This document shows positions 5,205 to 47,439 of a DNA stretch of 64,000 nucleotides, piece by piece. Source of the stretch: Dehalococcoidia bacterium (GTDB lineage Bacteria > Chloroflexota > Dehalococcoidia > UBA2979); the NCBI GenBank assembly GCA_965219085.1, contig OZ244720.1, forward strand, positions 1,888,001 through 1,952,000, written 5' to 3'. Both the position numbers and the translations under genes were made by a program. The stretch's first letter is position 1, and every line of letters begins with the position of its first letter. The notes beneath the pieces were generated by a model. The model saw only the letters and a list, made by a program, of their open reading frames with translations, searched no databases and was not told where the DNA came from.

Positions 5205-5415
5205 CTCGTCTCAGGTGCAATGGGACTGGTCTGTCGGGCGCCACGTGAACGCCTTCCCGTAGCACGGGGTCAATTCATGGCAGCATATCACGTAGCCATG
5301 AACGTTCGATGTAAACTAGCCACCTGTTGGTGGCAGGCTGGTGGCGAATCCGCAAAACGTATAGTCGGGGCTGGTTGCTACCTAGTCACAAGGACTACGC
5401 TCAGTAACCGTTTCG
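5205..5415. promoter_or_regulatory. Conserved promoter/leader element P1 (type A distal arm)
   Basis: Minus strand TCGAAC-N16-TATGCT with extended TG; TGGTGGC at 5328 and 5339; plus-strand TATAGT at 5360; 5355-5415 is nearly identical to 23140-23200. Confidence 0.75.
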
Positions 5416-6343
5416 GCGTCTCGATGGCCCGGTTGTACTGACCGAGGTTGTCATGGGCAACCCCCCTAGCGGCGAGGGTCTCCAGATTCTCGGGGTCGAG
5501 GCGCAGTGACCGGTCGAAGTCCTCGATTGCCTCGGCCGGTCTCTCCAGGTTGCCGAGAGCCACGCCCCGGCTGTGGAGGGCGCCAGCATTGTCCGGGTCG
5601 AGCTCCAGGGCAGCATCAAGGTCCCGGAGCGCGCTCTCGTACTCGCCGAGATTGAGCTTCGTGACTGCCCTCGCGCAGCGCGAGAGGTTGCTGAGCGGCT
5701 CCAGCTCGATGGCGCTGTCGAAGTCCTTGATCGCCCGCTCGAAGTCGCCCAGATCGCGGTAGGCGAGGCCCCGGTGGTGGTAGGCGGCCGCGAGACCGGG
5801 CGCGATCTCGATCGCCCCGCTCAGATCCTCCACAGCCCGGGTCGGCTCGCCCAGTTCGGCGTAGGTGTTTCCGCGGTTGTAGTAGGGGTTGGGATCGGCA
5901 GGGTCGGGGCCGATCGCCGTGTCGAAGTCTTTGAGCGCGGCGGCCATGTCGCCTAGCTGGGCGAGGGAGGCGCCGCGGCTGTAGTGCGCGACGGCATCAC
6001 CCGGATCGAGCAGGATGGCAATGTCGTAGTCTCCCACCGCCGCGCGGTGCTCCCCCAGCTCGGCACTGGCATGTCCGCGGTAGTGGTGGGCCTCGGCGTC
6101 ACCGGGCGACAGCTGCAGGGCCTTGCCGAAATCCTCCTTCGCGTGGCGGTCGTCGCCCAGTTGCTGATGCAGCAGCCCCCTCGCGGACAGCGCGGTAGCG
6201 TCGTCGGGATTGGCCGAGTCTGGGTTGAGGCGCTCCAGCAGCTGCCGCAGCTTCTGCTGACTGAAGTCGTCCAGCACCCCATGGTGTCTGCCTTGGTCGT
6301 CCGGTCGCTCCTGCCCGTCCTTGCGGTCGTGCTCTCCACGCAT
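5378..6343 (-). CDS. Tetratricopeptide-repeat protein, 3'-truncated
   Basis: About 8 TPR units (e.g. AYHHRGLAYRDLGDFERAIKDFDSAIELEP). GAGGAG lies 7 nt before ATG 6343. The last repeat breaks at YNRAIE and reads into P1. Confidence 0.8.
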   Translation of the reverse strand: MRGEHDRKDGQERPDDQGRHHGVLDDFSQQKLRQLLERLNPDSANPDDATALSARGLLHQQLGDDRHAKEDFGKALQLSPGDAEAHHYRGHASAELGEHRAAVGDYDIAILLDPGDAVAHYSRGASLAQLGDMAAALKDFDTAIGPDPADPNPYYNRGNTYAELGEPTRAVEDLSGAIEIAPGLAAAYHHRGLAYRDLGDFERAIKDFDSAIELEPLSNLSRCARAVTKLNLGEYESALRDLDAALELDPDNAGALHSRGVALGNLERPAEAIEDFDRSLRLDPENLETLAARGVAHDNLGQYNRAIETPKRLLSVVLVTR

Positions 6344-6781
6344 CGCTGGGCTCCTCTGTCCTTCTCTCGGCGTCCCGCCGCGTCGGGCCGGTCTGTCCCC
6401 ATGGCGCCGCGCCCCCCACTCGTTCTCACGTTGCAGAGTGCGCGCGGCTGCTCTGCCGCGCGGTTGAGAGAAGCGCAGACGGGTACCGACTAGAGGGCCG
6501 CACCCTCGCGTAAGGGGGGGTCCCCGCCTCGGTGCTTCGACTCCAGTGAGGGAACCCACCTCTGGAGCCACGAGGTCGAGTTTCGTCTGCTTCAACGGGC
6601 CTCGGTAAACATGTTCCCTCAATCACCGCCGTATTTCTGCGGGTCCCTCTCCAGGGTGGAACCGCCGCCAATGCTCACCACCGCCCGGTGACCGACACGC
6701 TCGAGCCAGATGCCGGCGAGTGGTCATGCTGCGCTACTCGATTCAATTGCGCGCGAGTGAAGCTCTGCCTGTCAGACACGG

Positions 6782-9700
6782 TCAGCTCGATGCCCGCGTG
6801 ATCGCGATGGTGTAGGCCTGCGTCGTGACGCCGTCCGCGGCGGTCACGGTGACGGTGATCGTGTTCGGACCCGTTGACAGATCCACCTGGTGGCCATTGG
6901 TCGAGCTGTCGTCGTCGGTGGGCGAGATCACCACGGTCGCCTGGTGTTGGTCGCACCCGCCGTGACCGTGGTCGAGGCCACATCGTTGTCGACCGAGAGG
7001 GTGTAACTGGCCGTATCGCGATCGAACGCGAAGTCGATCCCGCTGAGCTCGAGCTTGAGCAGCTTGGCGTTCTCCTTCCAGGGCGAATCGAACGAAGGAA
7101 TCTCCTGCTCCTCGCCGGCGGAGTTCCAGCAAACGATCGAGGTATCGGTCTTCAGGCCGCGCGCCTGGCGGTACCAGTCGATCGTCACTTCCTTGAAGAC
7201 GCCCTGCGGCGCCACCCTGTTGACATTCGTGACCAGCGCGGTCGTGCTGCCGTTCGCGATCCAGCACTTGATGTCACCGCCGACGGTGACGGCGCAAGAT
7301 TGCCGATAGTGCATGTCGACGTGCTGGAACTTGCCGGTCGGCGCGTTCGTCTCCACATGCGTCTGGTGGCCGATCCAGCGACCGCTGTCGTCCCACGGTC
7401 CCGTGAACTCCCAACAGACCAGGTCGCCGTCCGTATTGACGCCATCGTTCGGATCGCCATCCTTGCTGATGCCGCAGACTCGGTAGCCGCCGGCCTGGAG
7501 GAACGTGAACTTGCCGCCCGGCGGCTGCGATGTGGCGGAGCCGCCGAAGGATCGGCAGACGACCTCATCGTCCGCGTTCAGCGCACAGAAAAAGTTGTAT
7601 CCGCTCGTGACAAGCTTGAACGGGCCGCTATGCGTGCTGTTGGCGTCTCCGCCACAACCGACCGAGCCATCCTCGTTGAGCCAGCAGATTCCAGGTTGGC
7701 TGAAGGTGTGAATCTGCTGGATCTTCCCTTCCCGCACGGCCCCAACGTGACCAAATCCGTCCCAGCAGCGCGCGTAGCCATCGGCCTGGATGCCGCATGA
7801 GGAATCATTTCCTGCAACGATCTGGGTGAATATGCCCTCGGGGGTCCGCGGCTCCCGTTCGCTGAAATGCAGATCGCCCCAACACTCGACCGTCCCATCC
7901 ATACGCAGCGCGCAGACGTGGTCCCAGCCGGCGTCGACCTGCTGGAACCCGCCGACCGCCTGGACCACCTGTTTCGCGACGACGGGGTTGTCGACCTTGG
8001 CGATGGTCTTGATGGCGTCAACCAGTTGCTCGTCGTCTGCCTCCACCGATTTCACACCCGACGCCGCCGGGATCGTGATCGAGGTCGTGTCCGAACCCTG
8101 GCTGGCGGCATTGCCTCTCAGCGCGATGACCTGGAAGACGTACGTGGTCCCGGCCTCCGTGGCCGTGGCGTCGCTGTAGCTCGTGGCGGTCGACTCGCTG
8201 TCCGCGACCAGGGCGAACATCTCGCCCTCGCCGACGCCGCGCAGGATCCGGTAGCCGTCGACCGAGGCCGCGCCGGCCGCGGGCGCGGTCCAACCCAGCG
8301 CGACGCCGCCGCCGACGGCAATGGCCGCGGTCAGGCCGCCGGGCGCGAGCAAGGTCAGATCCGCGATGTGCGTGCCCGTCGTCACCGTGAGCGAGAGTTC
8401 GTAGGTGCCGGTCCAGCCGCTCTCCGCCGATGCGGAGACGAAATAGACTCCGTCCGCGTCGGGACTGAACGACTCGATCCGGCTGTCCTTGCCCGTGCCC
8501 GCTACTTCAGAGTCGGTGCCCGTGACCAGGAGGCCGCTCGCGTCGTAGATGCCCAGCAGTTTCGGATCCTCCAGCGTGCCCACCGAGACGAACGCCGGTG
8601 CGCCGTCGACCAGCTGCCACCCGCCGGTCGATTTGCCGCGCATGTCGATCTGATAGGTCGCGCTGGCCTGCAAGCTGAGCCGGTACCAATCGACATCGCC
8701 GACCGTTGCGCGCTCGCCGCGCACCGAACCGTCGACCTCGAGCGCGCACGCCGTGCTCGTGTCCGCGGGCAGATCGCTACCCCCGGCATCGAACTCGCAC
8801 GTCGCGACGACGGCCGCGGTCAGTGCGACCGAGGCTTCGGCCGACGCCTGGCTGCGGACGCCAGTGCGGATCGCATTGACCTGGTAGGTATAGGTTTCGC
8901 CGGCCGTGGTCGCCGTGGCGTCGCTGTAGGCGGTCGCCGTGCCCCCGGTGTCGGCCACCAGGGTGGCCAGCTCGCCGTCGCCGGCGGCGCGCAGGATCTC
9001 GTAGCCGCTGACGCTATCGGCGTCCTCCGCAGGCGCGGCCCAGCTCAGGGCCACGCCGCCGCCTTCGGGAAGCGTGGCGATCAGGCCGCTGGGGGCGAGG
9101 TCAACAGGGTCATGGGGGATTTGGACCCGGACCTGGCCCGACACCTGGCTGCGCTCCTCGCCGCGGATCGCCTTGACCTCGTAGGCGTAGGTCTGACCTG
9201 CCTCCGTCGCGGTGGCGTCGGTGTAGGTCGCGGTCGTGCTCGCAGTGTCGGCCACCAGGGTGGCCGGCTCCCCGTCGCCCACGGCGCGCAGGATCTCGTA
9301 GCCGCTGACGTTCCCGGCATCCTCCGCCGGGGCGGTCCAGCTCAGGGTCACCCCGCCGCCTTCGGCAGTCGCGGCGGTCAGGTTGGAGGGAGCCAGGGCA
9401 ACGGGGTCATGGGGGATCTGGACCTGGGCCCGGCTGGATGACTGGCTCCGCTCCTCGCCGCGGATCGCCTTGACCTCGTAGGCGTAGGTCTGGCCTGCCT
9501 CCGTGGCGGTGGTGTCGGTGTAGGTCGCGGTCGTGGAACTGCTGTCGGCTACGAGGGTGGTCAACTCGGCGTCGCCCACGACGCGAAGGATCTCGTAGCC
9601 GCTGACGTTCTCGGCATCCTCCGCCGGAGCGGTCCAGCTCAGGGTCACCCCGCCGCCTTCGGCAGTCGCGGCGGTCAGGTTGGAGGGAGCCAGGTCAACG

Positions 9701-12126
9701 GGGTCATGGGGGATCTGGACCTGGGCCCGGCCGGATGACTGGCTCAGCTCCTCGCTGCGGATCGCCTTGACCTCGTAGGCGTAGGATTCGCCCGCCTCCG
9801 TCGCGGTGGCGTCGCTGTAGGTCGTGGTCGTGCTCGCAGTGTCGGCCACCAGGGTGGCCGGCTCCCCGTCGCCCACGGCGCGCAGGATCTCGTAGCCGCT
9901 GACGCTGTCGGCGTCCTTCGCAGGAGCGGTCCAGCTCAGGCTCACCCCGCCGCCTTCGGCCAGCGTGGCGGTCAGGCCGCCGGGGGCCAGGTCCTCGGCG
10001 ACAGGCGCTGCCCGCGTCACCGTGACGCTGTAGGTCGCCGTACTCACGCCGTCGGGAGCAGTGACGACGATCGTGATCGCGTTCTCACCGACCGAGAGGT
10101 CGATCTGGTGTCCGTCGGTCTGCGAGTCGGCATCCGCCGTGACGCCAGCGGCGCTGATCGAGGCGTCGGCCGCGCCGTTGCTGAACGCCGGCTCGGCTGT
10201 GATCGCCGTCACCGAGACGTCGTTCGCGACCTCAGCCTCGTAGTCGAAGATGGCGGGCAGGAACGGGCGAACCTCGACATCCGTCAACTTCAGCAGTCTC
10301 AGGCGGGCGCGCTCCGGCATGGAGAATGCCCGGATCAGCGTGCCCTGCGAGTCGGACATCCACATCGTGGCGCCGTCGCTCCACAGACCTCCCGGGTGGA
10401 TCAGTCCAAGGTTCCAGGTCGTAAACCATTCCAGGCTTGGCACCCTCGTGTTGCTGTCGAGTTCAAGGACGCGAAGCCCGCCCATGAAGTTCATCATCCA
10501 GAACAGGTGGCCGTCGCTGTAGGCCGCGAACACCCGCCCCATTTCGCTGGCTACGCCACACCGGTTGTCGCCCCGCTCGAGGTCATCGAGCTCGTACGCG
10601 TACATGGGACCTTCGCAAGTGGGGTCGTCACTGCTGCTGCTGACGACCCGAATGGTGTCGCTGTCGCCCGCAATGCCCTTCAGTTCCGAGTCCGGCGACT
10701 CGATGTCTCGCCCGGGAACACGCGCCCACGTCTCCAGGTCATAGGCGTAGATCTGATTGGTCACCCCGCACCAGTTGTTGGATATCCATGCCGTCTCCCC
10801 GTCGGACCAGATGTCTCCCGGGCAGACCGGCCCGGAGCCGAGACTGTGGCTCCTCAGTTGCTCCGCGGTCTTCAGGTCGAACACCAGCACCTCATCGACA
10901 CGATCGATCAGGACCCACATGCGCTCGCCGTCCGACCAGATGCCCGTGGCCGACCACTCCAGACCCGACCACGATTCCAGCGGCGTGATGACGATGTCCC
11001 TGGACGAATCGCGAACGAGGCCGGTGGACGGATCGCGCGGGGTGTCGACCTCGGCTTCGACCGATGCGGGGCTGGCTCCGTGGCTGTTGAGCGCGAGGAT
11101 GCGGTAGGTGTACTTGCTGGCCGCCTCGACGGTCTCGTCGACGAATGTGGTTACCGTCGAGGCGCTGTCGTCGCTGACCGTCACCGTCGGGCCAGGCTCC
11201 GCGTCGCGCTCGCGGCGCAGAACCCGGTAGCCCGTGACCGTGTCGTCTTCGGGGTCGTCCCAGCTGAGCGTGACCGCTTCCGCCGTCGCCGTGCCGCTCA
11301 GCCCGGTCGGCGCCGATGGCGGCGCCGCGGGCGTGTTGGCCCGCAGATACGCCGACCACTGGCTCAGGCCGAACGTGTTGATCGCCTTGACCCGGTAGAC
11401 GTAGCGGGTCAAGGCACCGACGCCGTCATCGGTGTAGCTGGTCTCGGCGCTGCCGGTGTCGGCCACCACGATGTCGAACCGGCCGGTCTCGTACTCGTCG
11501 CGCAACCGGCGGAGAATCTGGTACCCGGTCACCGTGGCGTCCTGCGGATCGGTCCAGCTCAGCTCGACCGTCTCATGGGTGGCCGAGACCAGGCTCAGGC
11601 CCTGGGGCCGGGCCGGCGCCTCGGTCACCCGCTGCACCGTGGTTGTCGTCGATGCCGCTGCCGCCGGCTCGGCCTCGCTCTCCACCCAGCTCAGGCTCAG
11701 CGCGACCGTGTCGTCCTCGGCCCAGACCTGGGTGGTCGCCCAGACGGAGGAGGTAATCGATCTGCTCTTCACCTCACTCGCATCGGCGGACGCAAACTCG
11801 GTCCCGTCCACCGTCAGGACGAAGTCGTCGCTCGGCTCCGGTTTCAGGTTGAACGCCAGAAAGCCGTTCGACAGCAGGATCGCCACGACGTCAATCGTCT
11901 GGGTATCCGCGCTGAACTCGTCCTCGCTGAGCGTCCCCATCCCGCCCAGGAAGATGCTGTAGCCGTGGGTCGTCTCGCTGCCCGTGCCGTGCACGCCCAC
12001 GGTCAGGGTCGCGGTCCAGGCTGCGGCCGGGGTGTCGGGGACCGGCTCAGAGCCCTCCTCACCCGATACCGGCAGCACTCCCGACAGCGCAAGTGCGAGG
12101 GCAAGCGCCGCCAGGGCTATCGACAT
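6782..12126 (-). CDS. G2: giant FN3/propeller/PPC/RCC1-like/cadherin-like surface protein, frameshift near 6943
   Basis: 1732-aa ORF with hydrophobic signal. The true C-terminus (QATVVISPT...TIAITRASS*, as in G3) is in another frame ending at 6782; gcctggtg here vs gcctgggtg in G3. Confidence 0.85.
8820..10000 (-). repeat. Four tandem ~300-bp FN3 repeats in G2 (same subfamily as G1 repeats)
   Basis: Repeated DLAP..LTA...EGGGV.LSWTAPAED...VSGYEILR...YAYEVKAIRGEERSQ units. Confidence 0.85.
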
Positions 12127-12255: not shown

Positions 12256-15200
12256 TCAGCTCGATGCCCGCGTGATCGCGATGGTGTAGGCCTGCGTCGT
12301 GACGCCGTCGCCGGCGGTGACGGTGACGGTGATCGTGGTCGTCGAACCCGCTGTCAGATTCACCTGGTGGCCGTCGCTCAAGCTGTCGGCGTCGGTGGGC
12401 GAGATCACCACCGTCGCCTGGGTGTTGGTCGCGCCCGTCGTGACCGTGGTCGAGGCCACATCGTTGTCGACCGAGAGCGTGTAGCTGACCGTGTCGCGGT
12501 CGAATTCGAGGTCGATCCCGCTGAGCTCGAGACTGAGAAGTTTCGCGTTGGTCTTCCAGGGGGAGTCGAACGCCGGCGTGTCGATCTCGGCGCCGTCGTA
12601 GCCCCAGCACGTAATCGTGCTGTCGGTCCGCAAGGCGCAGGCATGGGGATACCAGTCGATCGATACGGTCTTGAAATCGCTCGCGGTCAGTCCGCTCAAA
12701 CTCGTCAAGAGGGAGCCGAGACTGCCGCCATGGCGCGTCCAGCACTTGATTTGGCCCGTCTCTGTGACGCCGCAGGTTCGCGTGTAGTGCACCTGAAGGT
12801 GCTGGAACTTGTCAGTGGGGGCTGCTTGCTCGTCCTCCGTGTAACTGGTGTTCTCGGCGGAATCTTGCCCCGTCGTCGCGGCGAACTTGTTCTGCAGCGA
12901 GTGATCTCCGTATCGCCAACACAACACGGTGCCATCGACATCCGGGTCTGTGGCATCCGAACGAATCCCGCACACTCGATATCCGCCGACCTGTAGGAAC
13001 TTGAACGTGCCCGTTGGCACGGCGCGAGCCCCGTGATTGCTCCAACACACGGCTTCGTCGTCGTTGTCGATGGCGCAGGCGATGTAGCTGCCGACGCTGA
13101 TTGAGGTGTAGGTACCTGACGACGGCGGTCCGGCCATGCCGGCCCCGCAATCGACGGTGCCATCGGCGTTCAGCCAGCAGACTCCATCGAGGTTGTTGGT
13201 GTTGACCTGTTGCTTGGGACCAGAACCATCCGGCTGGTAGTCGCGCTCCCAACAGGTTGCGGAGCCGTCGTCACGGATGGCGCAGGTGCGGTCGAATCCA
13301 GCGATGACCTGGGTGAAGATGCCCTCAGGTGTGTCCGCTTGCCTGGCACACACCCAGCGCCCGTCATACGGACCGCCTTCGCAGCGCTCCTTCAGATTTT
13401 CCATCTCGCCCCAGCACTCCAGCGTGCCGTCCATGCGGAGGGCGCACGCGTGCCGCCAGCCGGCGTCGACCTGCTGGAACCCGCCGACCGCCTCGACCAC
13501 CTGCTTCACGACGACGGGGTTGTCGACCTTGACGATGGTCTTGATGGCGCCAACCAGTTGCTCGCCGTCGGAGTTGACGGAGTCGTCCGACTGAACCGAC
13601 TTGGCGGTGCTGTCCGAGTTGTCGGTGGTCAAGGACAGTTCCTTGACGTGCTGGCCGGCCGTCACCGTGAGCGAGAGTTCGTAGGTGCCGGTCCAGCCGC
13701 TCTCCGCGCCGGCGGCGATGTAGTACTCGCCGTCGGTCGATGGGGTGAATGAGGCGACACGGCTGTCCTTTCCGGTGCCGTTCACCTCGGAATCGCTGCC
13801 CGCAATCAGGATGCTGTCGCCGCCGTAGACGCCGAGCAGCTTGGGATCGACCAGCGTGCCCAGGGTGACGAACGCCGGCGCGCCGTTGACCAGGACCCAC
13901 TCGCCGCTCGACTTGCCCTTCATGTCGAACTGGTAGGTGACGCCGCCGACCAGCGCGACCTTGTACCAGTCGACGTCGCCTTCGGCGTCGATTTCGCCGA
14001 TCACGCTGCCGCCGACTTCGAGCACGCCAGTCGTGCTCGGGTCGTGGGGCAGATCACCGTCGCTGGGCGGAGTCGTGTCGATCACCCGGACCCCGTACGT
14101 GCCGGTCCCGCGACTGCCGGAGGTAAAGTCCTCGCGACTGCGCACCACGACGTAGTAGGTGGAATCCTCGGTCGGCTGGAACTCGTAACTGCCGGTCCCG
14201 TTGCCGCCGTCGCGGTCGTGGGACAGCGCGCTGCCGTCGCTGTCGTAGACCGCCCGCAGGTAGGGCAGGCCGAGCGTGTAGTCGTTGTCGCCGTCGGCCG
14301 AACTGACCAGGTCGAGGTAGTAGGTCTTGCCGTCGCCGCCGGTCAGATCGAGCTGGAACCAGTCGTGCTCCTCCTCGGCCGTCTCAATCGAGGCGTCCGT
14401 GGTCGTGCCCAGCGTCAGCGTGACCGGCGTCACGTCGGGGAACGTCTCGAACAGCGTTTCCTCCGGCGTCGGCGGCGCCAGCGGCGGCGGAATCTCGGGC
14501 GGCTCCTGGATCGTGAGCGAGAAGCTCCTCGTGCCGTGTCCCGGCTGGCCGCCGATTCGCACGTAGTAGGTCCCGGCTTCCTTCGGCCTGAAGGTACCGA
14601 TGTTGGACTTGGCGATGATCGTGCCGTCGGACTTGTAGATCGCCCGTCGGAAGACCTCACTGCTCTTGTTCAGCGCCGTCTCGTACTCCGTGCCGGCCTC
14701 GAGCTCGACCGAGAACCAGGCGTCGCTGTCGTTCGGCGGGAACTTGACTGTGCCGCGGATCGACTGGCCTTCGGTCGCCGACTTGGCGGAAATCTCGGCG
14801 AAGCTGTCCGCGTCGAGCGCCTCAACCTCCGTCACGGAGACCTCGTACGGGCCGATCATGCGGACGTCATCGCCGCAGCATGCGTTGTGGCCGAGGTCGA
14901 TGTAGTAATCGCCCGTGCGCGTCGGCGTGAAGACGATCTCCATCGTGCGGTGACGCCAATAGTCGCCGTCCCAGCGGGTGCCGGGCAGCGGCTTGGACTC
15001 GTCACCGAAGCGAATCCCGCCAATCCCAACGACCTCGTCGATAATGTGGTCTCGCCCGAACGTGCCATGAGCGCGCAGCTTGTAGGACTTGCCCGCTTCC
15101 ATGGCGACGACGTACCAGTCGTGGTCGGACGACTTCTCGAAGAAGCCGTTGACCTTGGTGCCGTCGATGCTCAGGCGCGCGGTCGTGCTGGTGTTGTTGG

Positions 15201-18537: not shown

Positions 18538-18715
18538 GCAACTGCCTCCTGTGTAGCACGGGCCAAGCCATGGCAAGGTACCACCTGGCTGTGAATCTTC
18601 AATGGAAATAAGCCCACTGCGGTGGCAGTGCGATGTACACTCGGAGAAATAGGCTACGGAGGTAACAAGACCAAATGCGTGAGTTTCGGGCTCTCTTCCG
18701 TGAGCTTTAGTGAGG
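18525..18715. promoter_or_regulatory. Conserved promoter/leader element P2 (type B distal arm)
   Basis: Minus strand TTGAAG-N16-TACCTT with TG; CGGTGGC at ~18620; distal gctacgg...gcgtgagtttcgggctctcttc.gtgagctttag shared with 47375-47439. Confidence 0.75.
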
Positions 18716-22361: not shown

Positions 22362-22832
22362 CTAGAGCAACTCCCGCTTGAACAGTAGCCGCTCGATCCC
22401 GTACTTGCGGCTGCCCAGGACGCCGATGATGCCGGCGATCCCGAAGTAGAGGATCGGCACCTCGCCGCCGTGGGCGCCGAAGCCGCCCATGGCCGGGTAG
22501 ATGTGCGGCCACAGCTCGTTGGGGTAGTGCACATCGAAGTACGCGACCACCATCTGCACCGTCAGTGCGCCCGCGCCGAGGCGGGTGAACACACCGCTCG
22601 CGATCAGGATGGCGGCGATCACCTCCACCCACCCGGCGACATCGACCTTCCAGCCGAGCGGGTGATCCGCCGGGAAGTCCCAGAGCAGGAACGCCTTCTG
22701 CACCCCGTGGAGGCCCACGAGGAAGGCGAACAGCAGCCGGAAGCCGAGGTAGAACTCCTCGACGTACGGCAGGAGGTACTTCCCCAACAGCGAGCCGTCG
22801 CCCGCCGCTCCTGATTCATTGTCCATCTGCAT
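22362..22832 (-). CDS. DoxX-family membrane protein
   Basis: Four hydrophobic segments; HGVQK, E...LIASGVFTR..A...MVVAYF..H and GSRKYGI pattern typical of DoxX. Confidence 0.75.
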   Translation of the reverse strand: MQMDNESGAAGDGSLLGKYLLPYVEEFYLGFRLLFAFLVGLHGVQKAFLLWDFPADHPLGWKVDVAGWVEVIAAILIASGVFTRLGAGALTVQMVVAYFDVHYPNELWPHIYPAMGGFGAHGGEVPILYFGIAGIIGVLGSRKYGIERLLFKRELL

Positions 22833-23200: not shown

Positions 23201-23252
23201 CGCGCCGAGACGCTTGAGCGCCAGGTTCGACTGCAAGAATGAGGCCTGTCAT

Positions 23253-35351: not shown

Positions 35352-35535
35352 GCAAATGCCTCCCGGCAGCACGGGATCCAATCCCATGGCAACGTACCAT
35401 CTTGTGGTGAACGTTCAGTGGACAATAGGCCCAATACGATGACAGTCCAGTGGTAATTCTCAGGGAAAAGCTACGGAAGTAGCAAAAGACCCATTCGCGT
35501 GAGTTTGCGCTCTTATTGTGATTCTAACGTGAGGA
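35310..35535. promoter_or_regulatory. Conserved promoter/leader element P4 (type B)
   Basis: Minus strand CTGAAC-N16-TACGTT with TG; leader gtctcaggtgcatggactggtctgtc shared with P1/P5; direct repeats degenerate. Confidence 0.75.
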
Positions 35536-35666: not shown

Positions 35667-35680
35667 CTCTTGCTTCCGGC

Positions 35681-36144: not shown

Positions 36145-36166
36145 AACAGGCGCAGCCAGGGAAGAG

Positions 36167-39100: not shown

Positions 39101-42100
39101 GCTGACGGCGACAGCCAATGTCGTGGTGTGGGCACCGGCCGAGACACTCAGCGTCACGTCGTAGACGTTGTTCGGGCCGAAGTCGGTCGCGTCCTCGTAG
39201 TCCGGGGCTGCCTTGAACTCCAGCCTCCCGTTCGGGGACGTGAAGTTGAACTGCTCGCTGTCGCTCCCGGCGAGCGGTTGCCAGGCGATGGTGGCGCTCT
39301 CGGGGTCCGACGCCCGGTACGTCCCGACGAGGAGCGTGCCGCCTTCCTCGACGCCCGGCCTGGCGTCGCCGCTGATCGCGGGCGGCTCGTTGACGGGGTC
39401 GACGGTGACGGTGAGGGCGAGGCTGCCCGTCTTGCCGTCGCTGTCGCGGGCGCTGACCGTGATGCCGTAGACGTTGTTCCCGCCCGAGTCGGCGGGGCGC
39501 TCGTGGTCGGGGACGTTCACGAAGGAGAGCACGCCGGCGGCGGTGAGGGCGAAGTCGAGGCGATCCGTCCCGCCCACCGACCACTCGTACGTGAGGGTCT
39601 GGTCGTTCTCCGGGTCGTTCGCGCTGAAGGTGGCGAGCGTGCCGTCATGGTTCTCGGCCACGGTGAGCGCGTTGTTGTTCACGGTGACGCCGCCCGTCGC
39701 CACGAACGAGATATCCGCGGGCTCGTCGACGTTGGTCACGGTGACGGTCAACGTGACGCTGTCGCTCAGGCCGTAGGGGTCCGTAGCGGTCACAACGACC
39801 TCGTACGAACTCCGCGTCTCGTGGTCGAACTGGACGTTGGCTCGCAGTCCTCCGGCGGCCGGGTTCGCGACGGTGAAAGCGTCCGCGTCACGCCCACCGA
39901 GCGTGTAGGTGAGCTGTTCGCCGTCCGGGTCGGTGGCGGTGACGGTGGCGACGACCGCCGACGTGCTGTTGTTCTCCGCCACCTCCTGGGTGTCCGTGGT
40001 GGCCGCAAACGCCGGCGGCCGGCTGGGGACGACCTTGAGAATGCGGTCCGCGCCTCCGCCGTTCGATGTGGTGAGGTAGAGCGCGCCCCCGCGGCCCAGC
40101 ATGGGGGTCCGGAGGCGCCCGTAGGTACCGTCGAGCTCGGGCACGACCACCTGGCTCACGAACCTCCCGGCCGCGGTGAACTCGAAGATCCGGAGCGACC
40201 GGGTCTTGAGCGTGGCGACCGCGAGCCGGCCGCTCCACTCCTCCCAGTCGGGGCCGTGGAGGAAGATGCCGCCGCTGGTCGCCAGCGTCGGGTCGCCGGA
40301 CGACCATCTGGCCTCGACCGCGTCGGGGAACTTCACGCGGTCGGTCATGGGAACGGACTGGTCGTAGCCGGGTACCGGATCCCATCCGTAGTTGCCGCCC
40401 GAGGTCAGCAGGTTGATCTCGTCGTCCACAGTCGGCCCGTGCTCGACCGACCACATCTGGTTCGTGCCGGGGCGGCGAGCGAGGCCCTGCGGATTGCGGT
40501 GGCCGTGGGTGTAGACGCGCGCCGAGGCGGCGAACGGGTTCCCGGGCGCGCCGACGCCCGTCGACGCATCGACGCGGAGCACCTTCCCGCCCAGCGAGCT
40601 GAGGTCCTGCGGTACCGTCCCGGATGCAGCGTCTCCCGTCGCGATCCAGAGGAACCCGTGCGGGCCGAAGCGCAGCCGGCAACCGTTGTGGATGCTGGCC
40701 GCGGGGATGCCCCCGACGAGGGGATCCGCGACACGCGTGGCCGCGGTGTAGTCCGAGTTCATGGTCCAGGCGATCACCTGCACGACGCGCCCGGTGTGCG
40801 CCTGGCAGGTGTAGAACCGCCGGTTGGAGGCGAATCCGGGATCGACGAGGATCGCCATCAGTCCGGCCTCCCCGCTCACGAACAGGTCGCTGAAGTCCGC
40901 CGTCACGGTCTGGACCGTGCCGCCGGTGAGCCGGGCCTTGAGCGCTCCGCCGCGCTCCGTGAGCAGCATCGTCCCGTCCGGTGCGAAGGCGAGATCCCAG
41001 GGAATGCTGAGGCCGGAGACGAGCGTGACGACGGTGATCCCGGGCGCGGCCTCACGCGCGCCGACCGGTTGGCCCGATTCGACCTCGGCGCTCTTGCCCG
41101 TGCCCTCTCCGTCCGCGTAGGTAGCACGGGCCCGGATGTACATCCCCTCGTCGGCGCTCGTCGGTGTGTAGCTTGCGTCGCTACCGGAAACGCTGGTCCA
41201 GTCGGTCTGGTCCGAGGACCGCTGCCACTGCCAGAACACCGACCGCACGCCCCCGTCCGGGTCGCTGATGGCCGCCCTGAGCACGGTTCCAACCCGGGCC
41301 TGAGCGGGCCCCAGCGACACGGCGCCCGCTTCCTCGACGTTGGTGACCGTGATCGTCACGTCGATGGTGTCGCTCAGCCCGTGGCTGTCCGTGGCGGTCA
41401 CCGCGACGGAGTAGCTGGACGCGGTCTCGTAGTCGAGGGCGGCCCTCGTTCGCAGCTGACCCGTCGAGGCCACGATCGCGAAGGAGCCCGCGTCGGGTCC
41501 GCCCAGCGAGTAGCTCAGCGAGTCGCCGCTGTCGGGATCCGTGGCGACGAGCGGTTCGCCGATGTCCTGACCCGAGGCGGTGTTCTCAGGGATGGTGCGG
41601 GCGCCGGTCTCGGTGTCCGGGAAGGATGGTGAGATCGACTGCAGCGTGAACGCGAGGCTCGCGATCCGCTCGGTCGTGAACCTGCCCGTCCCGCGGATGC
41701 TCGTGATGTGGTCGCGCGGGCTGGTGTCGACGCTGGGGCTGAGCGAGAAGTCGTCGCCCTCCTCGCTGCCGGCATCCCACGGGAAGAGGTCCACCTCGTG
41801 CGAGGGGAGCCAGCGGCCCGAGGCATCGAGCAGTAACAGTCCCGAGACGCCGACGAACCAGTCGTGGCTCGGCGCGATCATCGTCGTGACCGTGACCCGC
41901 GGAAACTCGGTTGTGAACCTGCGGTTGCTCAGGGTGCGGGTGGCAGTGGGACTGATGGAGCCGGTGCTGCCCTCGAGGACGGAGAGAGCAGTGGGCGGGT
42001 CGGCGTTCCGCGCCGTGTTGACTTCGCCGCGGAGGGTCGACGTTCCCCCGATTTCCGCCATCGACTCGACGCCCGGACTGGCCGTGCCCCCGCTCTCGAG

Positions 42101-45100
42101 GAAGGTCACGTCGGCGCTGTGCACCGCGCCGATCAGACGCGAGAAGTGCGCCCCGCCAGGGAGACCGTCGGGCGTGACGTCCCTGTTCCACGTGCCCCGG
42201 AAGCGGATGGTGTAGATGGCCGTCGACGCGAAGGGCGCCACCGAATCGCTCGCCGATGGCGTGAGCGACAGATCCTCCTCGGTCCGTGTCACGGTGATGG
42301 TGTAGGTCTCGGTGGCCATGCCGTCCTGCGCGGTGACTTCAACCTTGATGATGTTTTCGCCCACCGACAGGTCGACCTGGACCGGGCTGGCGGTGCCCAG
42401 GCTGTTGTCGTTGCCGTCGAGGAACTCGACGGCCGCGTTCTCGTTGCTCGTGGTCGCTGCGACCGTCGTCCGGGTCACCGTGTACCCGACTGACGGCGTG
42501 TACGAGGTCGTGCCGCTCATGAACGCGGGGGTCAGCCGCACACCACTCAGCGTCAAGGCGCTGAGCGTGGCGTCGTCGGAGAGCGCCGTCGTCCCCATCC
42601 GCGTGGCCGACCAGGGGCCCTCACCTGCGGCGTTCTCCGCCCGCACCTGCACGTCGTACTGCGTCCCGACCTTGAGTCCCGTGACCGTGGCCGTCAGGTC
42701 GCCGGAGGTCCATGCGCCGGACTCGACGGTCCAGTTCGCCTCCATCGTCTCGTCATCGCTAGTCTTGATGTACCGCAAGTCGTAGGACGAAACCGCCGCG
42801 TCTCCGTCCGTGGCGGGCGCGCTCCATTCGACCGTGAGCCCCGACGCGACGCCGGTCACCGAGTCGATCGCCGGGGCGCCGGGCCGTGTCGTACCGACGC
42901 TGGTGGCGGACCAGGCGCCCTCGCCCGCGCCGTTGACCGCGCGCACCTGCACGTCGTACTGCGTGCCGCTGTCGAGACCCGTGACTTCATGCTCCAGGTC
43001 CGGGCCGCCGGAGCTCCACACCTCCGTCTCGACGGTCCAGTTGGCGTCCATCGTCTCGTCCTCGCCGGTCTTGATGTGGCGCAGGTCGTAGGACGTGATC
43101 TCGTCCCCGCCGTCGCTGGCGGGCTCGCTCCACCCGACGGTGAGCGAGCCGCCTGCCCCGGTGACCGCGTCGATCGTCGGAGCGCCGGGCGTGGTGCGCG
43201 GTGTGGCGGTGCGGACGCCCGACCAGGCGTGTTGGTCGGTCCCCACGACCGCCCGCACCTGCACGTCGTAGGAGACCCCGTTGACGAGGCTGGGCGTCGG
43301 GTTGAGCGTGTATTCGAGCGAGCCGGAGGTCCAGATCGACGTGGTCACCGTCCAGCGGGCGTCTGCCTTGTCCGAGGCGTCGCTGCGGATATGGCGCAGG
43401 TCGTAGGAGGTGACGGTTCCCAGGGTCGTGCTCGTGGGCGCGGTCCACTCGATGGCGATCGAGCGGTCGCCTGGGGTGACCGAGTCGATGGTCGGGGCCT
43501 CGTCCGTCGTGGGTGTGCCGGTGGCGGCGTCCGACCAGACGCCGTCGCCGCCGGCGTTCACCCCGCGCACCTGCACGTCGTATTCGGCGTTCCCGGTCAG
43601 GCCGGTGACGACGTGCGAGAGAGCGCCGGAGCCGTCGGTCCAGACGTCCTGCAGGATGGTCCAGTTGGCGTCCACCGTCTCATCGGCGCTGGTCAGGATG
43701 TAGCGCAGGTCGTAGGCGGTGATGTCGGACGCGCCCGTGTTGGTAGGGGCAGTCCAGGTGACGGTGAGCGCCTCGCTGCCGGCCGCGACCGAGTCGACAG
43801 CGGGGGCGGCGGGGCTTGACCGGTGGCCGTACACCGTGAGGCTCCACGAGTTGAGCCGGGCGGCCGTCCCGCCACCCACGTGGTCCGTGATGCGCAGCTT
43901 CCAGACGCCGGCGGGATCCTCGCCAAGGTGCCTGGCGGAACCGAAGCGCACGGGGCCGTCCAGGTTGCACTGGCCCGGGAGGATGCCAAACAACGACGTG
44001 CACTCCCCGCTGCCAACGAGGTAGTGCGGGGAGAGCACGGAGACCGTGCCCGATGGCGACTCGAGCTCGATCTGCAGGTCCCTGAACGCGGCCCTGAGGG
44101 AGGGACGAATCGAGACGAATTCGGTGAACTGCACGCCGGAGCCCATGGTGATGGAGCTGGTGACGGTGGTGGGCGTGCCCGAGGAGGGGAGGTCGGGGAT
44201 CGCCAGATTGGCGGCGCCCGACTCCCGCGTCTCCTCGATGAACAGCGGAAGGCTGGTCCAGCCGACCGCCAGGTCCATCGCCTCCTTGGCGTCGACCACG
44301 CCGAAGCCGTACTCGTGGTTGAACGCGTAGCGCTGGGTCGCGGAGCCGTACTGGAGGGCGCCCTCCTCCCAGCCGGTGTTCGATGGATCGTTCTTCCGGG
44401 CGGAGCCCGCCAGGATGAGCTTCACGTCGCGCCAGGTCAGGTCGGCGTAGGCGCCCCGCAGGAGCGCGGCCACCCCGGACACGATGGCGGCCGTGGAAGA
44501 GGTCCCGCCGAAGTTGTTCCGGTAGCGGCCGTAGTTGTCGGTGGTGGTGATGGCCGCTGGCAAGTAGCTGGCGCCGGAAGGCGCGCATACCCACAGGTTG
44601 GCGCCCTGTTCGGAGTAGTGCCACCGGACACCCCGATCCGTGACCGCACAGGCGGCCGTAGCGGTGTAGTGGTTCCGGAATCCGCTCAGGTTGGAGTTGG
44701 CGCCGACCACCGCGTCGTTGCCGCCGGACCGCACATACAACACCCCCTTGCCGCCGTAGCCCTCCGTGACCCCTCGCACCACCGCCCTTTCCCAGCCCGA
44801 GGGCGCCGTGGCATACCCGGGACCCTCGGTTACCGACCAGCTGTTGTTGCTGATGGCCGTGGTCTCCATCCCCCGCGTCATCGCGTCCGCCGCATTGGCA
44901 TGGTTGTAGTCGTCGATGAGGTTGTAGACATAGATCTGGGCGCGGGGCGCGACCCCCCGAACGCCGATGCCGTTGTCCCGCGCGGCGATGAGGCCGGCGG
45001 CGCCGGTGCCGTGGGTATTTCCGGGATTGAACACGGCTGCGCCGCCGTAGCCGTAGTTGCGGTCCGCAATCACGTTGGGCGCCAGGTCCGGGTGCCCGGC

Positions 45101-46996
45101 GTCAAAGCCGTCGTCGACCAGGGCCACGGTGGCGCCGGCCCCGAGGTGGCCGGCCGCCCACACCTCCCGGACGTTGATGTCCTCGCCCGGCGTCCCGCCC
45201 AGCTGTCCGGTGTTGTCCAGGTGCCACTGGCACCCGGAGAGGGGGTCGCTCAGGGGGTCGCTCAGGGACGCGGTGAGCGCCGTGCACCCGTCGAAGAATT
45301 CGCCGTAGACGTAGTCCTCCCACATGCGCAGCCCGTAACGCCCCGACGTGGGCCCGGAGCTACCGGGCAAACGCGTGACCTTGAGGTAGTACGTTCCCGC
45401 GTCGAGGCGGTCGCGGAGCGTGAACCCGGCGGGCGCGCTCGCGGTGTACCTGCTCTCGAAGATGTTCGCGTCAACGGTGTTGGCGTCCGCGTCCAGCAAC
45501 TCCCCGGCGATGGCGACGGCGGAGCCCGCGGCGACGAGGAGGACATGGGTCGCTTCGGCGAGCTCGATGCGGAAGTAGTCGACGTCGTCCGCCGGGCTGA
45601 TGGTTCCCGCCTTCGGGAACAGCGGGATGAGCGGCTCCGCCGCCGCGGTGGTGCTTCCCGGCTCGGCACCCCGGTTCACGTGGAGCGCGTACACACCGGT
45701 TTCCGCGGGGAAGCCCCCAACCCGCACGTAGTAGGTCCCCACGTCGAGGGTCACACGCACGAAGAAGCGGTTGCTCCCCAGGGGGAATTCCTCGCTGCCT
45801 GTGACCTCCCTACTCCCGCTCAGCCAGAGGTCGCCCCACGTGCGGGCGGGGCCGGTGCTGTGAACCAGCAGGGTGGTGCGCGCGGTCAGCGTGATGCGGA
45901 ACCAGTCCCGGTCGGTCCTCGCCGGATCGATGATCCCCCAGCCGAAGCCGCCGACTTCGACGTCCTGGGCATCGGACCTCGCCGTGGAGTCGGCGACCGT
46001 CGTTGTTCCCAGGACATAAGCGCCCGTGGCGCCGCCGCTGCCCGTGACCTTGACGTAGTAGGTCCCCGCCTGGAGAGAGCCCCAGAGCAGGAAGTTGTGG
46101 CGCCCGTGCAGCTCGTCCCCCAGGTCGTTCTCGCGGAGCAGGTCCCCGTTCTCGTCCAGCAGCTGCCCCACCGTGTCGAGGTCGCCGCGGGTGTAGATGA
46201 TGATGCCGGTCGCCGCCGTCAGCTCGAGCGTGAAGTAGTCGACGTCGGTCCCGGACTCGATCACCCCGCCCATGCGCGTGGTCAGCGGCAGCGTGGTCGC
46301 CGTCTGGAGCGTGCCGCCGTGCTCGGCGGGCGTCCCCGTCGCGGTCGCCGACCAGGCGCCGCCGGTCGCGGCCACGGCCCGCACCTGCACGTCGTAGCCC
46401 GTGCCGTTGGTGAGCCCGGAGAGCACGCCTTCCAGACTCCCGGAGGTCCAGAACTCCTCCAGTACCGTCCAGTTGCCGTCGGCCTTGTCCGTGGCCGTGC
46501 TCTCGATGTAGCGCACGTCGTAGGCCGTGATCTTCGTGGTGGCGGCGGCGGGACCGCTCCACCCGATCGTGACAGCGCCGTCGCCGGCGATGATGGTGTC
46601 GATGACGGGACCGGGGATCCGGGGCGTGCCCGTGGAGGTGGACGACCACTGGCCGTCGCCGGTGGTAACGGCCCGCATCTGCACGTCGTAGCCGACATCG
46701 TTGTCGAGGTCCTCGAGGGTGTAGGTGAGGTCGCCCGACCCGGATGACCAGACGTCCTCGAGCGCGGTCCAGTTGGCGTCGGCCTTGTCCGCCGCGTCAC
46801 TGCGGATGTGGCGCAGATCGTAGGCGGTGATGCCCGTCACGCCGGTGGGCGCGGTCCACTCGATCGTCAGCGAGCCGTCTCCGGCGGTGACGGAGTCGAT
46901 CGTGGGGGCGGCGATGGGCGTCTGCGCAAGAGTGCGACCCGGGGTCACCATCAGCCAGAGCAGGATGAAGGCCGCGAGCAGTCGAGGCCATCTCAT
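36167..46996 (-). CDS. G5: ~3600-aa multi-enzyme surface protein (FN3, PPC, S8 kexin-like protease + P domain, Spondin_N, PQQ glucose/sorbosone dehydrogenase-like, cadherins, C-terminal module)
   Basis: GGAGG before ATG 46996; signal MRWPRLLAAFILLWLMVTPGRTLA; S8 triad motifs VDDG, THGT, GTSS; MIAPSHDWFVGV..PWDAG; HNGCRLRFGP..GHRNPQG. Confidence 0.9.
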   Translation of the reverse strand: MRWPRLLAAFILLWLMVTPGRTLAQTPIAAPTIDSVTAGDGSLTIEWTAPTGVTGITAYDLRHIRSDAADKADANWTALEDVWSSGSGDLTYTLEDLDNDVGYDVQMRAVTTGDGQWSSTSTGTPRIPGPVIDTIIAGDGAVTIGWSGPAAATTKITAYDVRYIESTATDKADGNWTVLEEFWTSGSLEGVLSGLTNGTGYDVQVRAVAATGGAWSATATGTPAEHGGTLQTATTLPLTTRMGGVIESGTDVDYFTLELTAATGIIIYTRGDLDTVGQLLDENGDLLRENDLGDELHGRHNFLLWGSLQAGTYYVKVTGSGGATGAYVLGTTTVADSTARSDAQDVEVGGFGWGIIDPARTDRDWFRITLTARTTLLVHSTGPARTWGDLWLSGSREVTGSEEFPLGSNRFFVRVTLDVGTYYVRVGGFPAETGVYALHVNRGAEPGSTTAAAEPLIPLFPKAGTISPADDVDYFRIELAEATHVLLVAAGSAVAIAGELLDADANTVDANIFESRYTASAPAGFTLRDRLDAGTYYLKVTRLPGSSGPTSGRYGLRMWEDYVYGEFFDGCTALTASLSDPLSDPLSGCQWHLDNTGQLGGTPGEDINVREVWAAGHLGAGATVALVDDGFDAGHPDLAPNVIADRNYGYGGAAVFNPGNTHGTGAAGLIAARDNGIGVRGVAPRAQIYVYNLIDDYNHANAADAMTRGMETTAISNNSWSVTEGPGYATAPSGWERAVVRGVTEGYGGKGVLYVRSGGNDAVVGANSNLSGFRNHYTATAACAVTDRGVRWHYSEQGANLWVCAPSGASYLPAAITTTDNYGRYRNNFGGTSSTAAIVSGVAALLRGAYADLTWRDVKLILAGSARKNDPSNTGWEEGALQYGSATQRYAFNHEYGFGVVDAKEAMDLAVGWTSLPLFIEETRESGAANLAIPDLPSSGTPTTVTSSITMGSGVQFTEFVSIRPSLRAAFRDLQIELESPSGTVSVLSPHYLVGSGECTSLFGILPGQCNLDGPVRFGSARHLGEDPAGVWKLRITDHVGGGTAARLNSWSLTVYGHRSSPAAPAVDSVAAGSEALTVTWTAPTNTGASDITAYDLRYILTSADETVDANWTILQDVWTDGSGALSHVVTGLTGNAEYDVQVRGVNAGGDGVWSDAATGTPTTDEAPTIDSVTPGDRSIAIEWTAPTSTTLGTVTSYDLRHIRSDASDKADARWTVTTSIWTSGSLEYTLNPTPSLVNGVSYDVQVRAVVGTDQHAWSGVRTATPRTTPGAPTIDAVTGAGGSLTVGWSEPASDGGDEITSYDLRHIKTGEDETMDANWTVETEVWSSGGPDLEHEVTGLDSGTQYDVQVRAVNGAGEGAWSATSVGTTRPGAPAIDSVTGVASGLTVEWSAPATDGDAAVSSYDLRYIKTSDDETMEANWTVESGAWTSGDLTATVTGLKVGTQYDVQVRAENAAGEGPWSATRMGTTALSDDATLSALTLSGVRLTPAFMSGTTSYTPSVGYTVTRTTVAATTSNENAAVEFLDGNDNSLGTASPVQVDLSVGENIIKVEVTAQDGMATETYTITVTRTEEDLSLTPSASDSVAPFASTAIYTIRFRGTWNRDVTPDGLPGGAHFSRLIGAVHSADVTFLESGGTASPGVESMAEIGGTSTLRGEVNTARNADPPTALSVLEGSTGSISPTATRTLSNRRFTTEFPRVTVTTMIAPSHDWFVGVSGLLLLDASGRWLPSHEVDLFPWDAGSEEGDDFSLSPSVDTSPRDHITSIRGTGRFTTERIASLAFTLQSISPSFPDTETGARTIPENTASGQDIGEPLVATDPDSGDSLSYSLGGPDAGSFAIVASTGQLRTRAALDYETASSYSVAVTATDSHGLSDTIDVTITVTNVEEAGAVSLGPAQARVGTVLRAAISDPDGGVRSVFWQWQRSSDQTDWTSVSGSDASYTPTSADEGMYIRARATYADGEGTGKSAEVESGQPVGAREAAPGITVVTLVSGLSIPWDLAFAPDGTMLLTERGGALKARLTGGTVQTVTADFSDLFVSGEAGLMAILVDPGFASNRRFYTCQAHTGRVVQVIAWTMNSDYTAATRVADPLVGGIPAASIHNGCRLRFGPHGFLWIATGDAASGTVPQDLSSLGGKVLRVDASTGVGAPGNPFAASARVYTHGHRNPQGLARRPGTNQMWSVEHGPTVDDEINLLTSGGNYGWDPVPGYDQSVPMTDRVKFPDAVEARWSSGDPTLATSGGIFLHGPDWEEWSGRLAVATLKTRSLRIFEFTAAGRFVSQVVVPELDGTYGRLRTPMLGRGGALYLTTSNGGGADRILKVVPSRPPAFAATTDTQEVAENNSTSAVVATVTATDPDGEQLTYTLGGRDADAFTVANPAAGGLRANVQFDHETRSSYEVVVTATDPYGLSDSVTLTVTVTNVDEPADISFVATGGVTVNNNALTVAENHDGTLATFSANDPENDQTLTYEWSVGGTDRLDFALTAAGVLSFVNVPDHERPADSGGNNVYGITVSARDSDGKTGSLALTVTVDPVNEPPAISGDARPGVEEGGTLLVGTYRASDPESATIAWQPLAGSDSEQFNFTSPNGRLEFKAAPDYEDATDFGPNNVYDVTLSVSAGAHTTTLAVAVSVTNREEPGMLALPATRPQAEADYTATLGDPDGVRSTAWTWERSTSRGGPWTAVTGAADSTTTSVYTPVAGDIGYYLRATAAYTDGHGPNKSLVAVSTNSVLAAPVVNNPPTFTEANPTRSIAENARADAPVGERVTASDPDPGNTVGYELEPASDLFTIDGASGQIRVKEAASLDHETAPSHTVTVKASDSSNAFDTVEVTITVTDVNEPPDAVADAPGSFDEDTEITIDVLANDSDPEQDPSELLLTVVTPPLNGRASVNEPASAGDRRTITYEPNADYHGADTFTYRARDTGSPSLSNIATVSVEVDPVNDAPAFASQAATRSVPESAEAGDHVGAPVTATDVDENDTLAYSLSGPDVFSFVIDADGQITVGTGVTFDAATTSEYAVTVEARDTEGATASIDVTITVTTRPSRPPIIIGPIGPGGGGGPTGPTPSEVDFEWTVKRDIESLDSSHDSPTGSWSNGSILWLLENGSGADDAIYAYDLKSGERVEDREFELDERNRAPRGVWSDGKIKILWVSDSGQNKLFAHDLESGERLAERDIELAARNRAARGIWSDGETMWVLDGGKDSVFVYDLESGELLAECALDAANNDPRGIWSDGVTVWVSDHGAKRLFAYRLPVLSGEPDADEEDEGDKELERVRDEEFPNTILSRASNNSPRGLWSDGDVMYVADASDDKVYSYNMPDAIDARLATLTMSDIEIGEFSPRETEYTGVAAEGVAETTVEAAAVQSGAGVVIDPPDAGEKADGHQIALPGLGEITVTVTSADGSRTKTYRVAFGEAEQSTPEPWTHCLRGEVAEGFSLVVYEGGSVEELAACAQSRHVVALYVLHEGVYVSYILGAPNFVNREFTELFADGLPVMTPLVAGGNGPPSPDPFGDHLDAAGPQPWPECLRGAAVEGFSLVVYEGGSVEELVACAESRRVTAVYALADGEWVSYILGAPEFANQPFRELSPDGIPPITPLVAKSEGPPEAN

Positions 46997-47223
46997 GGAG
47001 AACGGCCCTCCGTTGGCCCCGCTGAAACAGCACCCACCCGGACAACGCACGACCCGGCCGCCACCCCAACCGCAAAGTCGGGGCAGGTGCCGGCCGGCAC
47101 CCGCCCGTTCTCATCGTGCGTCCATCAGTCATGCGTCGAGCAGCCGACCCGCCCCGTCGATCCCTCTCACTCGTCCTACGCTAATCGTCCAGAAACAGCG
47201 ACTGCGGGGGCCGTCGGTCCGTC

Positions 47224-47439
47224 CGCCGTCTCAGGTGCATGGACTGATCTGTCGAGCGCCCCGCAAACGCTTCCCGTAGTAACGGGCCAACTCATTGCAA
47301 CGTACCACTTGCCTGTGGATGTTCAATGGAAAAAAGGTCCACTTTGGTGGCAGCCCGGTGGCAATTCTCGGGAATAAGCTACGGCAGTAGCAAGCAAGAC
47401 CCATTGCGTGAGTTTCGGGCTCTCTTCTGTGAGCTTTAG
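47224..47439. promoter_or_regulatory. Conserved promoter/leader element P5 (type B), cut by IS1380
   Basis: Minus strand TTGAAC-N16-TACGTT with TG; TGGTGGC 47345 and CGGTGGC 47356. Confidence 0.75.

Follow-up and report, generated by a model that had tools for sequence, protein, structure and literature searches.

The winged helix-turn-helix (wHTH) domains of the OmpR/PhoB family bind tandem repeats with a period of 10–11 bp, and the PhoB pho box has two direct half-sites with an 11-bp period, of which the one nearer the promoter takes the place of the −35 element where the −10 is good but the −35 poor. A half-site placed over the −35 beside a perfect −10 is the layout of PhoB-type activation. 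Here we describe a related arrangement in a sponge-type Dehalococcoidia bacterium (Chloroflexota, UBA2979; assembly GCA_965219085.1, contig OZ244720.1), whose genome is a single contig of 3,305,961 bp (~68% GC, 92.7% complete). The window, by which we mean the whole 64,000-nucleotide stretch that was analysed (genome positions 1888001–1952000), holds an intergenic region, P3, with two divergent predicted promoters and a pair of direct repeats 11 bp apart, next to a gene that encodes sensor, histidine kinase, receiver and winged helix in one chain; four copies of the same predicted promoter (P1, P2, P4 and P5) stand in front of giant genes. As in the OmpR/PhoB family, the regulator has a receiver (REC) and a Trans_reg_C winged helix, and the putative site upstream of its own gene implies autoregulation. 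Unlike the stand-alone regulators of that family, it carries its kinase and sensor in the same polypeptide, and both the half-site words, of the GGTGGC type, and the recognition helix, SVTTYVKR, are specific to its orthologue group. Unlike a pho box, moreover, the putative P3 site also faces a divergent promoter.

Two other systems come close. The hybrid two-component systems (HTCS) of Bacteroides (PMC11253607) sit in the membrane, sense in the periplasm and bind DNA through a domain of the AraC type; they share with the present regulator the joining of histidine kinase, receiver and DNA-binding domain in one chain and a gene that adjoins the locus thought to be its target, and they differ from it in that the regulator described here has GAF/PAS sensors, an OmpR-type winged helix and no visible hydrophobic span. 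Pfam finds no AraC-type domain in our regulator. The ChiS protein of Vibrio cholerae is not known to have an OmpR winged helix of the Pfam type. ChiS is described as a membrane-embedded 'noncanonical' DNA-binding hybrid sensor kinase that binds DNA and regulates a gene set directly (bioRxiv 10.1101/2020.01.10.902320), and it resembles the present protein in being a hybrid kinase with its own DNA-binding part; phylum and targets are different, as are sensor, solubility and DNA-binding domain. Literature searches turned up no paper that treats this regulator family or connects it with the surface proteins of sponge symbionts, a further search yielding the ChiS preprint as its sole analogue.

Based on the comparisons below, we consider it probable that a module of ~200 bp, of which P1–P5 are copies, is a promoter–operator cassette bearing the site of the one-chain two-component regulator encoded beside P3. 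The elements at P3 are as follows.

22362–22832, minus strand: DoxX gene, downstream of the P3 minus-strand promoter
23065–23092, minus strand: candidate P3 promoter, TTGAAT-N16-TAGGTT plus an extended −10 TG, directed towards DoxX
23111–23128, plus strand: P3 box, exact, two TGGTGGC half-sites 11 bp apart; putative regulator site
23145–23150, plus strand: predicted −10 (TATAAT) of the regulator's own promoter, its 17-bp spacing kept in orthologues
23157–23252, plus strand: predicted 5′ leader of the regulator mRNA (type A arm), conserved in orthologues
23253–25658, plus strand: regulator gene, 801 aa, GAF-(PAS)-HisKA-HATPase_c-REC-wHTH in one chain

The first-pass annotation of the window had described the gene behind P3 as a soluble, single-chain GAF-PAS-HK-REC-wHTH regulator, and Pfam largely bears this out. 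Besides GAF, the same 801-aa chain contains HisKA (62.1 bits), HATPase_c (95.8 bits), Response_reg (93 bits, cut-off 30.2) and, at residues 712–787, Trans_reg_C (68.8 bits, cut-off 26.2); PAS is weak, at 20.4 bits under a cut-off of 22.6. The catalytic residues can be read directly: the H-box His in SHELRAPL and the N, G1 and G2 boxes of the kinase, then the DD pair, the Asp in LLDLMLPG and the Lys of KPF in the receiver. Solubility agrees with a reading of the sequence that reveals no hydrophobic span, no membrane-span predictor having been run. Contigs from three of four sequencing runs match 22740–23229 (for X4, 22740–23219) with no other letters (for X4, one gap); these four runs are contigs, which show no transcript starts or ends, and among RNA runs none was listed as containing the locus.

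Most of the window is occupied by giant minus-strand genes in which Pfam finds many fn3, cadherin and Ig domains together with enzyme domains. These genes, and the promoters and boxes that precede them, are located as follows.

2–5011, minus strand: giant gene G1, behind P1
5282–5309, minus strand: P1 promoter, pattern match, facing G1
5328–5345, plus strand: P1 box, exact TGGTGGC-N4-TGGTGGC
6928–12126, minus strand: giant gene G2, downstream of G3
12256–18576, minus strand: giant gene G3, 2106 aa, behind P2
18575–18602, minus strand: P2 promoter, pattern match, facing G3 (then G2)
18620–18637, plus strand: P2 box, half-site 1 intact, half-site 2 degenerate (GATGTA)
26640–35387, minus strand: giant gene G4, behind P4
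35391–35418, minus strand: P4 promoter, pattern match, facing G4
35437–35454, plus strand: P4 box, degenerate (GATGAC / AGTGGT), TG cores retained
36167–47050, minus strand: open reading frame (ORF) of giant gene G5, start codon read at 46998, with fn3, cadherin, subtilase, GSDH and other domains
47299–47326, minus strand: P5 promoter, pattern match, facing G5
47345–47362, plus strand: P5 box, TGGTGGC / CGGTGGC, 1 mismatch

The promoter pattern that had been claimed for P1–P5 (searched as YYGAAN, 13 N, TGN, TANNNT) matches the window exactly five times, at these positions and always on the minus strand, against 0.07 matches expected, and none of 100 shuffles reaches five; since the five sites are homologous copies of one module, the shuffle statistics are not counts of independent events. 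The claimed direct repeats are likewise present, their starts lying 19 and 30 bp past the −35 hexamer. The pair TGGTGGC-N4-TGGTGGC is found without mismatch at 5328 and 23111 and with a single one at 47345, and P2 and P4 carry the degenerate versions that had been noted there. In a scan of both strands over all 3,305,961 bp, P1, P3 and P5 are the only three sites where the repeat pair occurs with at most 1 mismatch. On the other side of P3, the reported TATAAT is found at 23145–23150, 17 bp after the TGGTGG at 23122–23127, and the −35 position of the promoter predicted for the regulator itself falls on the second half-site. What does not survive is the description of all five copies as divergent promoters, which holds at P3 and fails elsewhere: at P1 the arm is a truncated orphan (TATAGT at 5360–5365 follows the box with a spacer of just 15 bp), and at P2, P4 and P5 the right arm has no −10. 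An inverted repeat, TGAA-N2-TTCA (23080–23092, with equivalents at P1, P2, P4 and P5), covers the −35 hexamer and the start of the spacer and might be a second operator.

Further evidence on the function of the box comes from relatives. A scan of genome contigs with the regulator protein gave seven orthologous loci in Dehalococcoidia metagenome-assembled genomes (MAGs), with protein identities of 77% (L059), 83–86% (L061–L065) and 65% (L060); a large protein collection holds orthologues at 76–88% identity. Representative genomes of the same genus contain paralogues only (52–61% identity, a full-length one in 14 of 18), and module DNA matched none of these 18 genomes, with 1 weak match among all 40 relatives searched. 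The expected co-occurrence of motif and regulator is borne out, as the box lies upstream of the regulator gene at 7/7 orthologous loci. Their upstream regions align with P3 over the entire intergenic space and share with it a leader that contains a poly-G tract, the promoter of the minus strand (TTGAAC-N16-TATTTT with TG), both half-sites, and the regulator leader with its ribosome-binding site. At all seven, the regulator −10 stands exactly 17 bp after TGGTGA and reads TATAAT in five, TATAGT in L065 and TACAAT in L060. Half-site 1 reads GGTGGC, GATGGC, GATGGA or GATGTC and half-site 2 GGTGAC, GGTGAA or TGTGAC, which gives the orthologue group a consensus of G(G/A)TG(G/A)C-N5-(G/T)GTG(G/A)(A/C). 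Because these words vary, the exact heptamer repeat is particular to the present genome, and the seemingly degenerate words (GATGGC, GGTGAC, GGTGAA), those of P4 and the X copies described below included, lie inside the range seen in the boxes of the orthologues. The TG cores stay unchanged in 9/9 own copies and 9/9 orthologous copies. In L060, the most distant locus, islands of conservation coincide with both promoters, the TG cores and the start region.

The orthologues also reveal what P3 may have faced before. At 4/4 orthologous loci checked (L062, L059, L060 and one of L061–L065), the regulator is divergent from a giant gene. In L062 the giant ORF has at least 1209 aa, with many fn3 domains, and in L059 at least 1204 aa, with just a weak Ig-type match; both run off the locus. 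The presence of a giant gene divergent from the regulator in these two loci indicates that the pairing is ancestral. In the present genome its place is held by DoxX, which has a second, 97% identical copy at genome 283798–284265 with an unrelated upstream region; as the two copies are homologous only from ~45 bp ahead of the ATG, the placement of DoxX behind the P3 promoter is secondary. On this comparison, DoxX has replaced the giant gene at P3. DoxX was also considered as a conserved partner of the regulator and rejected, being absent beside 39 homologue loci (L022–L058 and two paralogues of this genome).

BLAST of P5 and P3 against the genome returns 10 module matches, one of them partial. 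Five are P1–P5, and the others lie outside the window.

Genome 1863426: U1, module copy, type B right arm in part
Genome 1953285: R1, module copy just past the right end of the window, preceding an operon that runs off the window
Genome 317–358 kb: X317, X345 (partial) and X357, module copies, type B right arm

The module comprises three parts: on the side of the giant gene a 5′ leader of ~75 nt, in the middle the promoter with its box, and beyond them a right arm of one of two kinds. In type A (P1, P3, R1), TATAAT, TATAGT or TCTAGT is followed by ~60 nt that at P3 belong to the leader of the regulator gene. Type B, found at P2, P4 and P5, in the X copies and partly in U1, has no −10. At P1 and R1, the type A arm is a truncated orphan of the regulator's promoter and leader, and both modules are copies in which a stump of the regulator side is retained. 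The promoter pattern recurs in every one of the nine full copies, with N16 in seven and N17 in two. Counted by eye from the conservation line of the alignment, the following do not vary among the nine copies: T, A and CA within the extended −10, TGAA/TTC in the −35 region, G-TG in box 1, the A after box 1, and TG in box 2. Both TG cores are thus fixed, with 3/7 columns invariant in half-site 1 and 2/7 in half-site 2; in the stretch of 17 columns from the −35 to box 1, just 1 is invariant. One giant gene seems to have been copied along with its module: an ORF of the same length as G3 (2106 aa) lies at genome 310270–316590, accompanied by a module copy, X317, and by the 252-aa ORF that also adjoins G3, which suggests a segmental duplication. 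In type B, the right arm of the P5 module is interrupted by the first gene of an insertion sequence (IS) cluster at 47511–54230, which comprises DDE_Tnp_1_4, an IS110-type gene, DDE_Tnp_1/DUF772 and an HTH_32 protein. That the module is itself a mobile element has low odds.

The leader that accompanies these promoters is placed as follows.

47215–47292 (P5), ~5202–5275 (P1) and ~35312–35384 (P4), minus strand: shared 5′ leader of ~75 nt, predicted to be common to giant-gene transcripts

Rfam has no match in the window, this leader included, and RNAalifold predicts a small hairpin only (−4.2 kcal/mol). A short ORF begins in the leader, and by reading its conservation ends after ~6 codons. Runs of 14 G, which are poly-C in the minus-strand mRNA, occur at 5117–5130 in the G1 leader and at 35246–35259 in the G4 leader, the latter ~35 nt ahead of the likely start codon; across other copies and orthologous genomes the length of the run varies from ~5 to ~19. 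Either a switch that works by slippage or homopolymer errors in long-read assembly could account for these observations.

Beyond the orthologues, the wider family supports an 11-bp rule. Upstream regions of full-length homologues were collected from same-genus genomes, the same-class relative G040, the genome-contig scan and two full-length paralogues of this genome, and single-linkage clustering, with BLASTN matches of 40 bp or more as links, gave 65 clusters. After removal of the present orthologue group and L060, one representative per remaining cluster gave 63 non-redundant regions of 250 bp, which were searched for 9-mer direct repeats (at most 2 mismatches, GC at most 5/9, low-complexity words excluded) at periods 5–40. 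Period 11 is the most frequent, occurring in 26/63 regions, against a mean of 7.09 (sd 3.36) for the other 35 periods and a rate of 8.7% in 400 control upstream regions of this genome, which lie upstream of maximal ORFs, the start codons of the homologues being approximate. The runners-up, periods 32 (17 regions), 33 (15) and 22 (12), are near multiples of 11. Period 11 is top as well in three other settings of this test and in all six settings of a 29-region test. In nearly all cases the repeated words read xTGxxx on the regulator coding strand (GTGACA, GATGACA, GTGTGA, ATGAAGT, TGTAAG); they differ between paralogues, as do the recognition helices, and the helix SV(T/R)TYVKR is confined to the present orthologue group.

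Giant genes recur as partners in this wider set. Among 34 clusters with 4-kb flanks, 14 have an ORF of at least 700 aa on the opposite strand that starts within 900 bp upstream of the regulator, ten of them running off the locus; 13 of the 14 have fn3, cadherin, LRR, Ig-type, CARDB or PPC domains, and the remaining one is a second regulator. At L115, two paralogous one-chain regulators stand head to head (1356–3908, minus strand, and 4001–6310) and share an intergenic region. Homologues with 57–60% identity also occur in MAGs labelled Latescibacterota, Palauibacter, Acidobacteriota and Gammaproteobacteria (L098, L122, L108, L110 and L129), which reflects either transfer between phyla or binning errors; at L098, the gene for an LRR protein diverges from that of the regulator, upstream of which lie three exact 11-bp repeats.

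In the mechanism that we propose, the kinase His of the regulator would pass its phosphate to the receiver Asp of the same chain, and two winged-helix domains would then bind head-to-tail on half-sites 11 bp apart. At P3, the box would cover the −35 of the regulator's own promoter, whose perfect TATAAT and poor −35 would fit an activator-dependent promoter that is presumably positively autoregulated. With respect to the divergent putative extended −10 promoter, which in relatives precedes a giant fn3-type surface-protein gene, the same box would be centred at about −56 and −67. The cassette has been duplicated in front of at least seven further giant-gene operons of this genome, and the giant genes that received it are probably co-controlled. 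The earlier proposal that the regulator autoregulates and controls a giant-gene regulon is in this respect strengthened by comparison, through the orthologues, the 11-bp periodicity and the linkage to giant genes. Its further suggestion, that repeat degeneracy grades expression, is a conjecture; the degenerate words concerned fall inside the range of the orthologues' boxes. The size of the putative regulon is another matter, since it differs between lineages. A search of five orthologous genomes (G041–G045) found three full module copies and one leader-only copy in G042, one copy each in G041, G043 and G045, and in G044 a single full copy, at the regulator.

Several observations weigh against this proposal. 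In G044, four giant genes have the leader only, combined with a different conserved upstream promoter that has no box, so that the leader is a separable element and these four genes use another promoter. In the present genome, boxes are degenerate in 6/10 module copies and the spacing at X317 is 12 bp instead of 11. All close box matches in the genome fall within copies of one module, and the box before giant genes could therefore have been inherited with the promoter rather than selected. The closer orthologues conserve the whole intergenic region, which limits the resolution of the footprint. A scan with the sigma-70 consensus calls no site at P3, where by hand count the hexamers agree with that consensus at 7/12 positions on the minus strand and 8/12 on the plus strand. 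In the family test, the settings were of our own choosing (all are reported) and the controls come from one genome, with GC of 0.63 vs 0.58; a fixed distance from half-site to TAnnnT could be judged in only 4/63 regions. Lastly, the full-length paralogues of this genome that were checked (663075–665441 and 628857–631229) have no adjacent giant gene.

There is also a narrower explanation, which we regard as possible though unlikely: the box would serve P3 for autoregulation only, and the other copies would be decaying passengers of promoter duplication or gene conversion, with no multi-gene regulon. In its favour, exact or near-exact boxes are found in just 4/10 copies (P1, P3, P5 and, with 2 mismatches, R1), the box keeps one orientation with respect to the regulator gene throughout the family, the truncated type A arms at P1 and R1 speak for wholesale copying, and G3 is twinned elsewhere together with its module. 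Against it stand the facts that both TG cores are invariant in the nine full copies while the neighbouring 17-bp stretch varies freely, that the words called degenerate are the same as those in the orthologues' own boxes, and that the pairing of regulator and divergent giant gene is ancestral and common in the family.

A different protein might instead read the conserved words, or the main operator might be the TGAA-N2-TTCA palindrome over the −35, the regulator then acting elsewhere. The genome does hold 9 Trans_reg_C genes, 4 of them long fused forms, and the TGAA/TTC arms are kept in 9/9 own copies and in the orthologues. We nevertheless find this improbable, because the family-wide excess of 11-bp repeats is located immediately 5′ of each regulator gene, in words that change with the recognition helix, and the palindrome is also just the −35 hexamer plus its neighbour. 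As to sigma-54, the spacing of GG and GC in the repeat pair (TGGCAG-N5-TGGC on the plus strand) fits the −24/−12 rule. This reading is extremely improbable and was rejected, as the genome has no sigma-54 DNA-binding domain: Sigma54_DBD (PF04552) has no match in this 92.7% complete genome and matches control genomes as expected. Matches to Sigma54_activat are weak AAA+ hits of 22–31 bits from a model that matches all 14 controls, archaea included, and the second element of the orthologues is GTGAA or GTGAC, without the GC.

Elsewhere in the window, a 589-aa protein with Schlafen AlbA_2 and HATPase_c_4 domains is encoded between P2 and P3 (19393–21162, minus strand), and further giant genes continue past position 54697.

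Taken together, the data also invite a broader scenario, which as a whole we hold to be doubtful and offer only tentatively: a dedicated family of one-chain regulators, co-evolution of helix and word, capture of genes by the cassette, a divided repertoire and a poly-C layer. A large family of soluble one-chain regulators in sponge-type Dehalococcoidia may serve giant eukaryote-like surface proteins (fn3, cadherin, LRR), and the recognition helix of each paralogue may co-evolve with its own 11-bp-phased half-site word. One regulator may have captured at least eight giant-gene operons by spread of the cassette. Variant boxes of the GATGAC and GGTGAC types, which resemble GTGACA words found in front of a paralogue, may apportion the adhesins among the four fused regulators of this genome, and the slippage-prone poly-C tract in the shared leader may add a second, stochastic layer of control.

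Giant 'eukaryote-like' proteins with fn3, cadherin and LRR domains are a hallmark of sponge symbionts, and we know of nothing on the control of such giant proteins in uncultivated Chloroflexota. The mechanism proposed here, OmpR-type binding with autoregulation, is conventional; what this work adds is the orthologue footprint, the family-wide 11-bp statistic and the count of giant-gene partners. For the family, these amount to a rule, in which 11-bp direct repeats lie upstream of each regulator gene and a divergent giant surface-protein gene is a frequent neighbour. For this organism, they would provide a concrete wiring (a single protein, its 18-bp site and a list of named target promoters) that can be tested with a purified domain and synthetic DNA, culturing not being needed.

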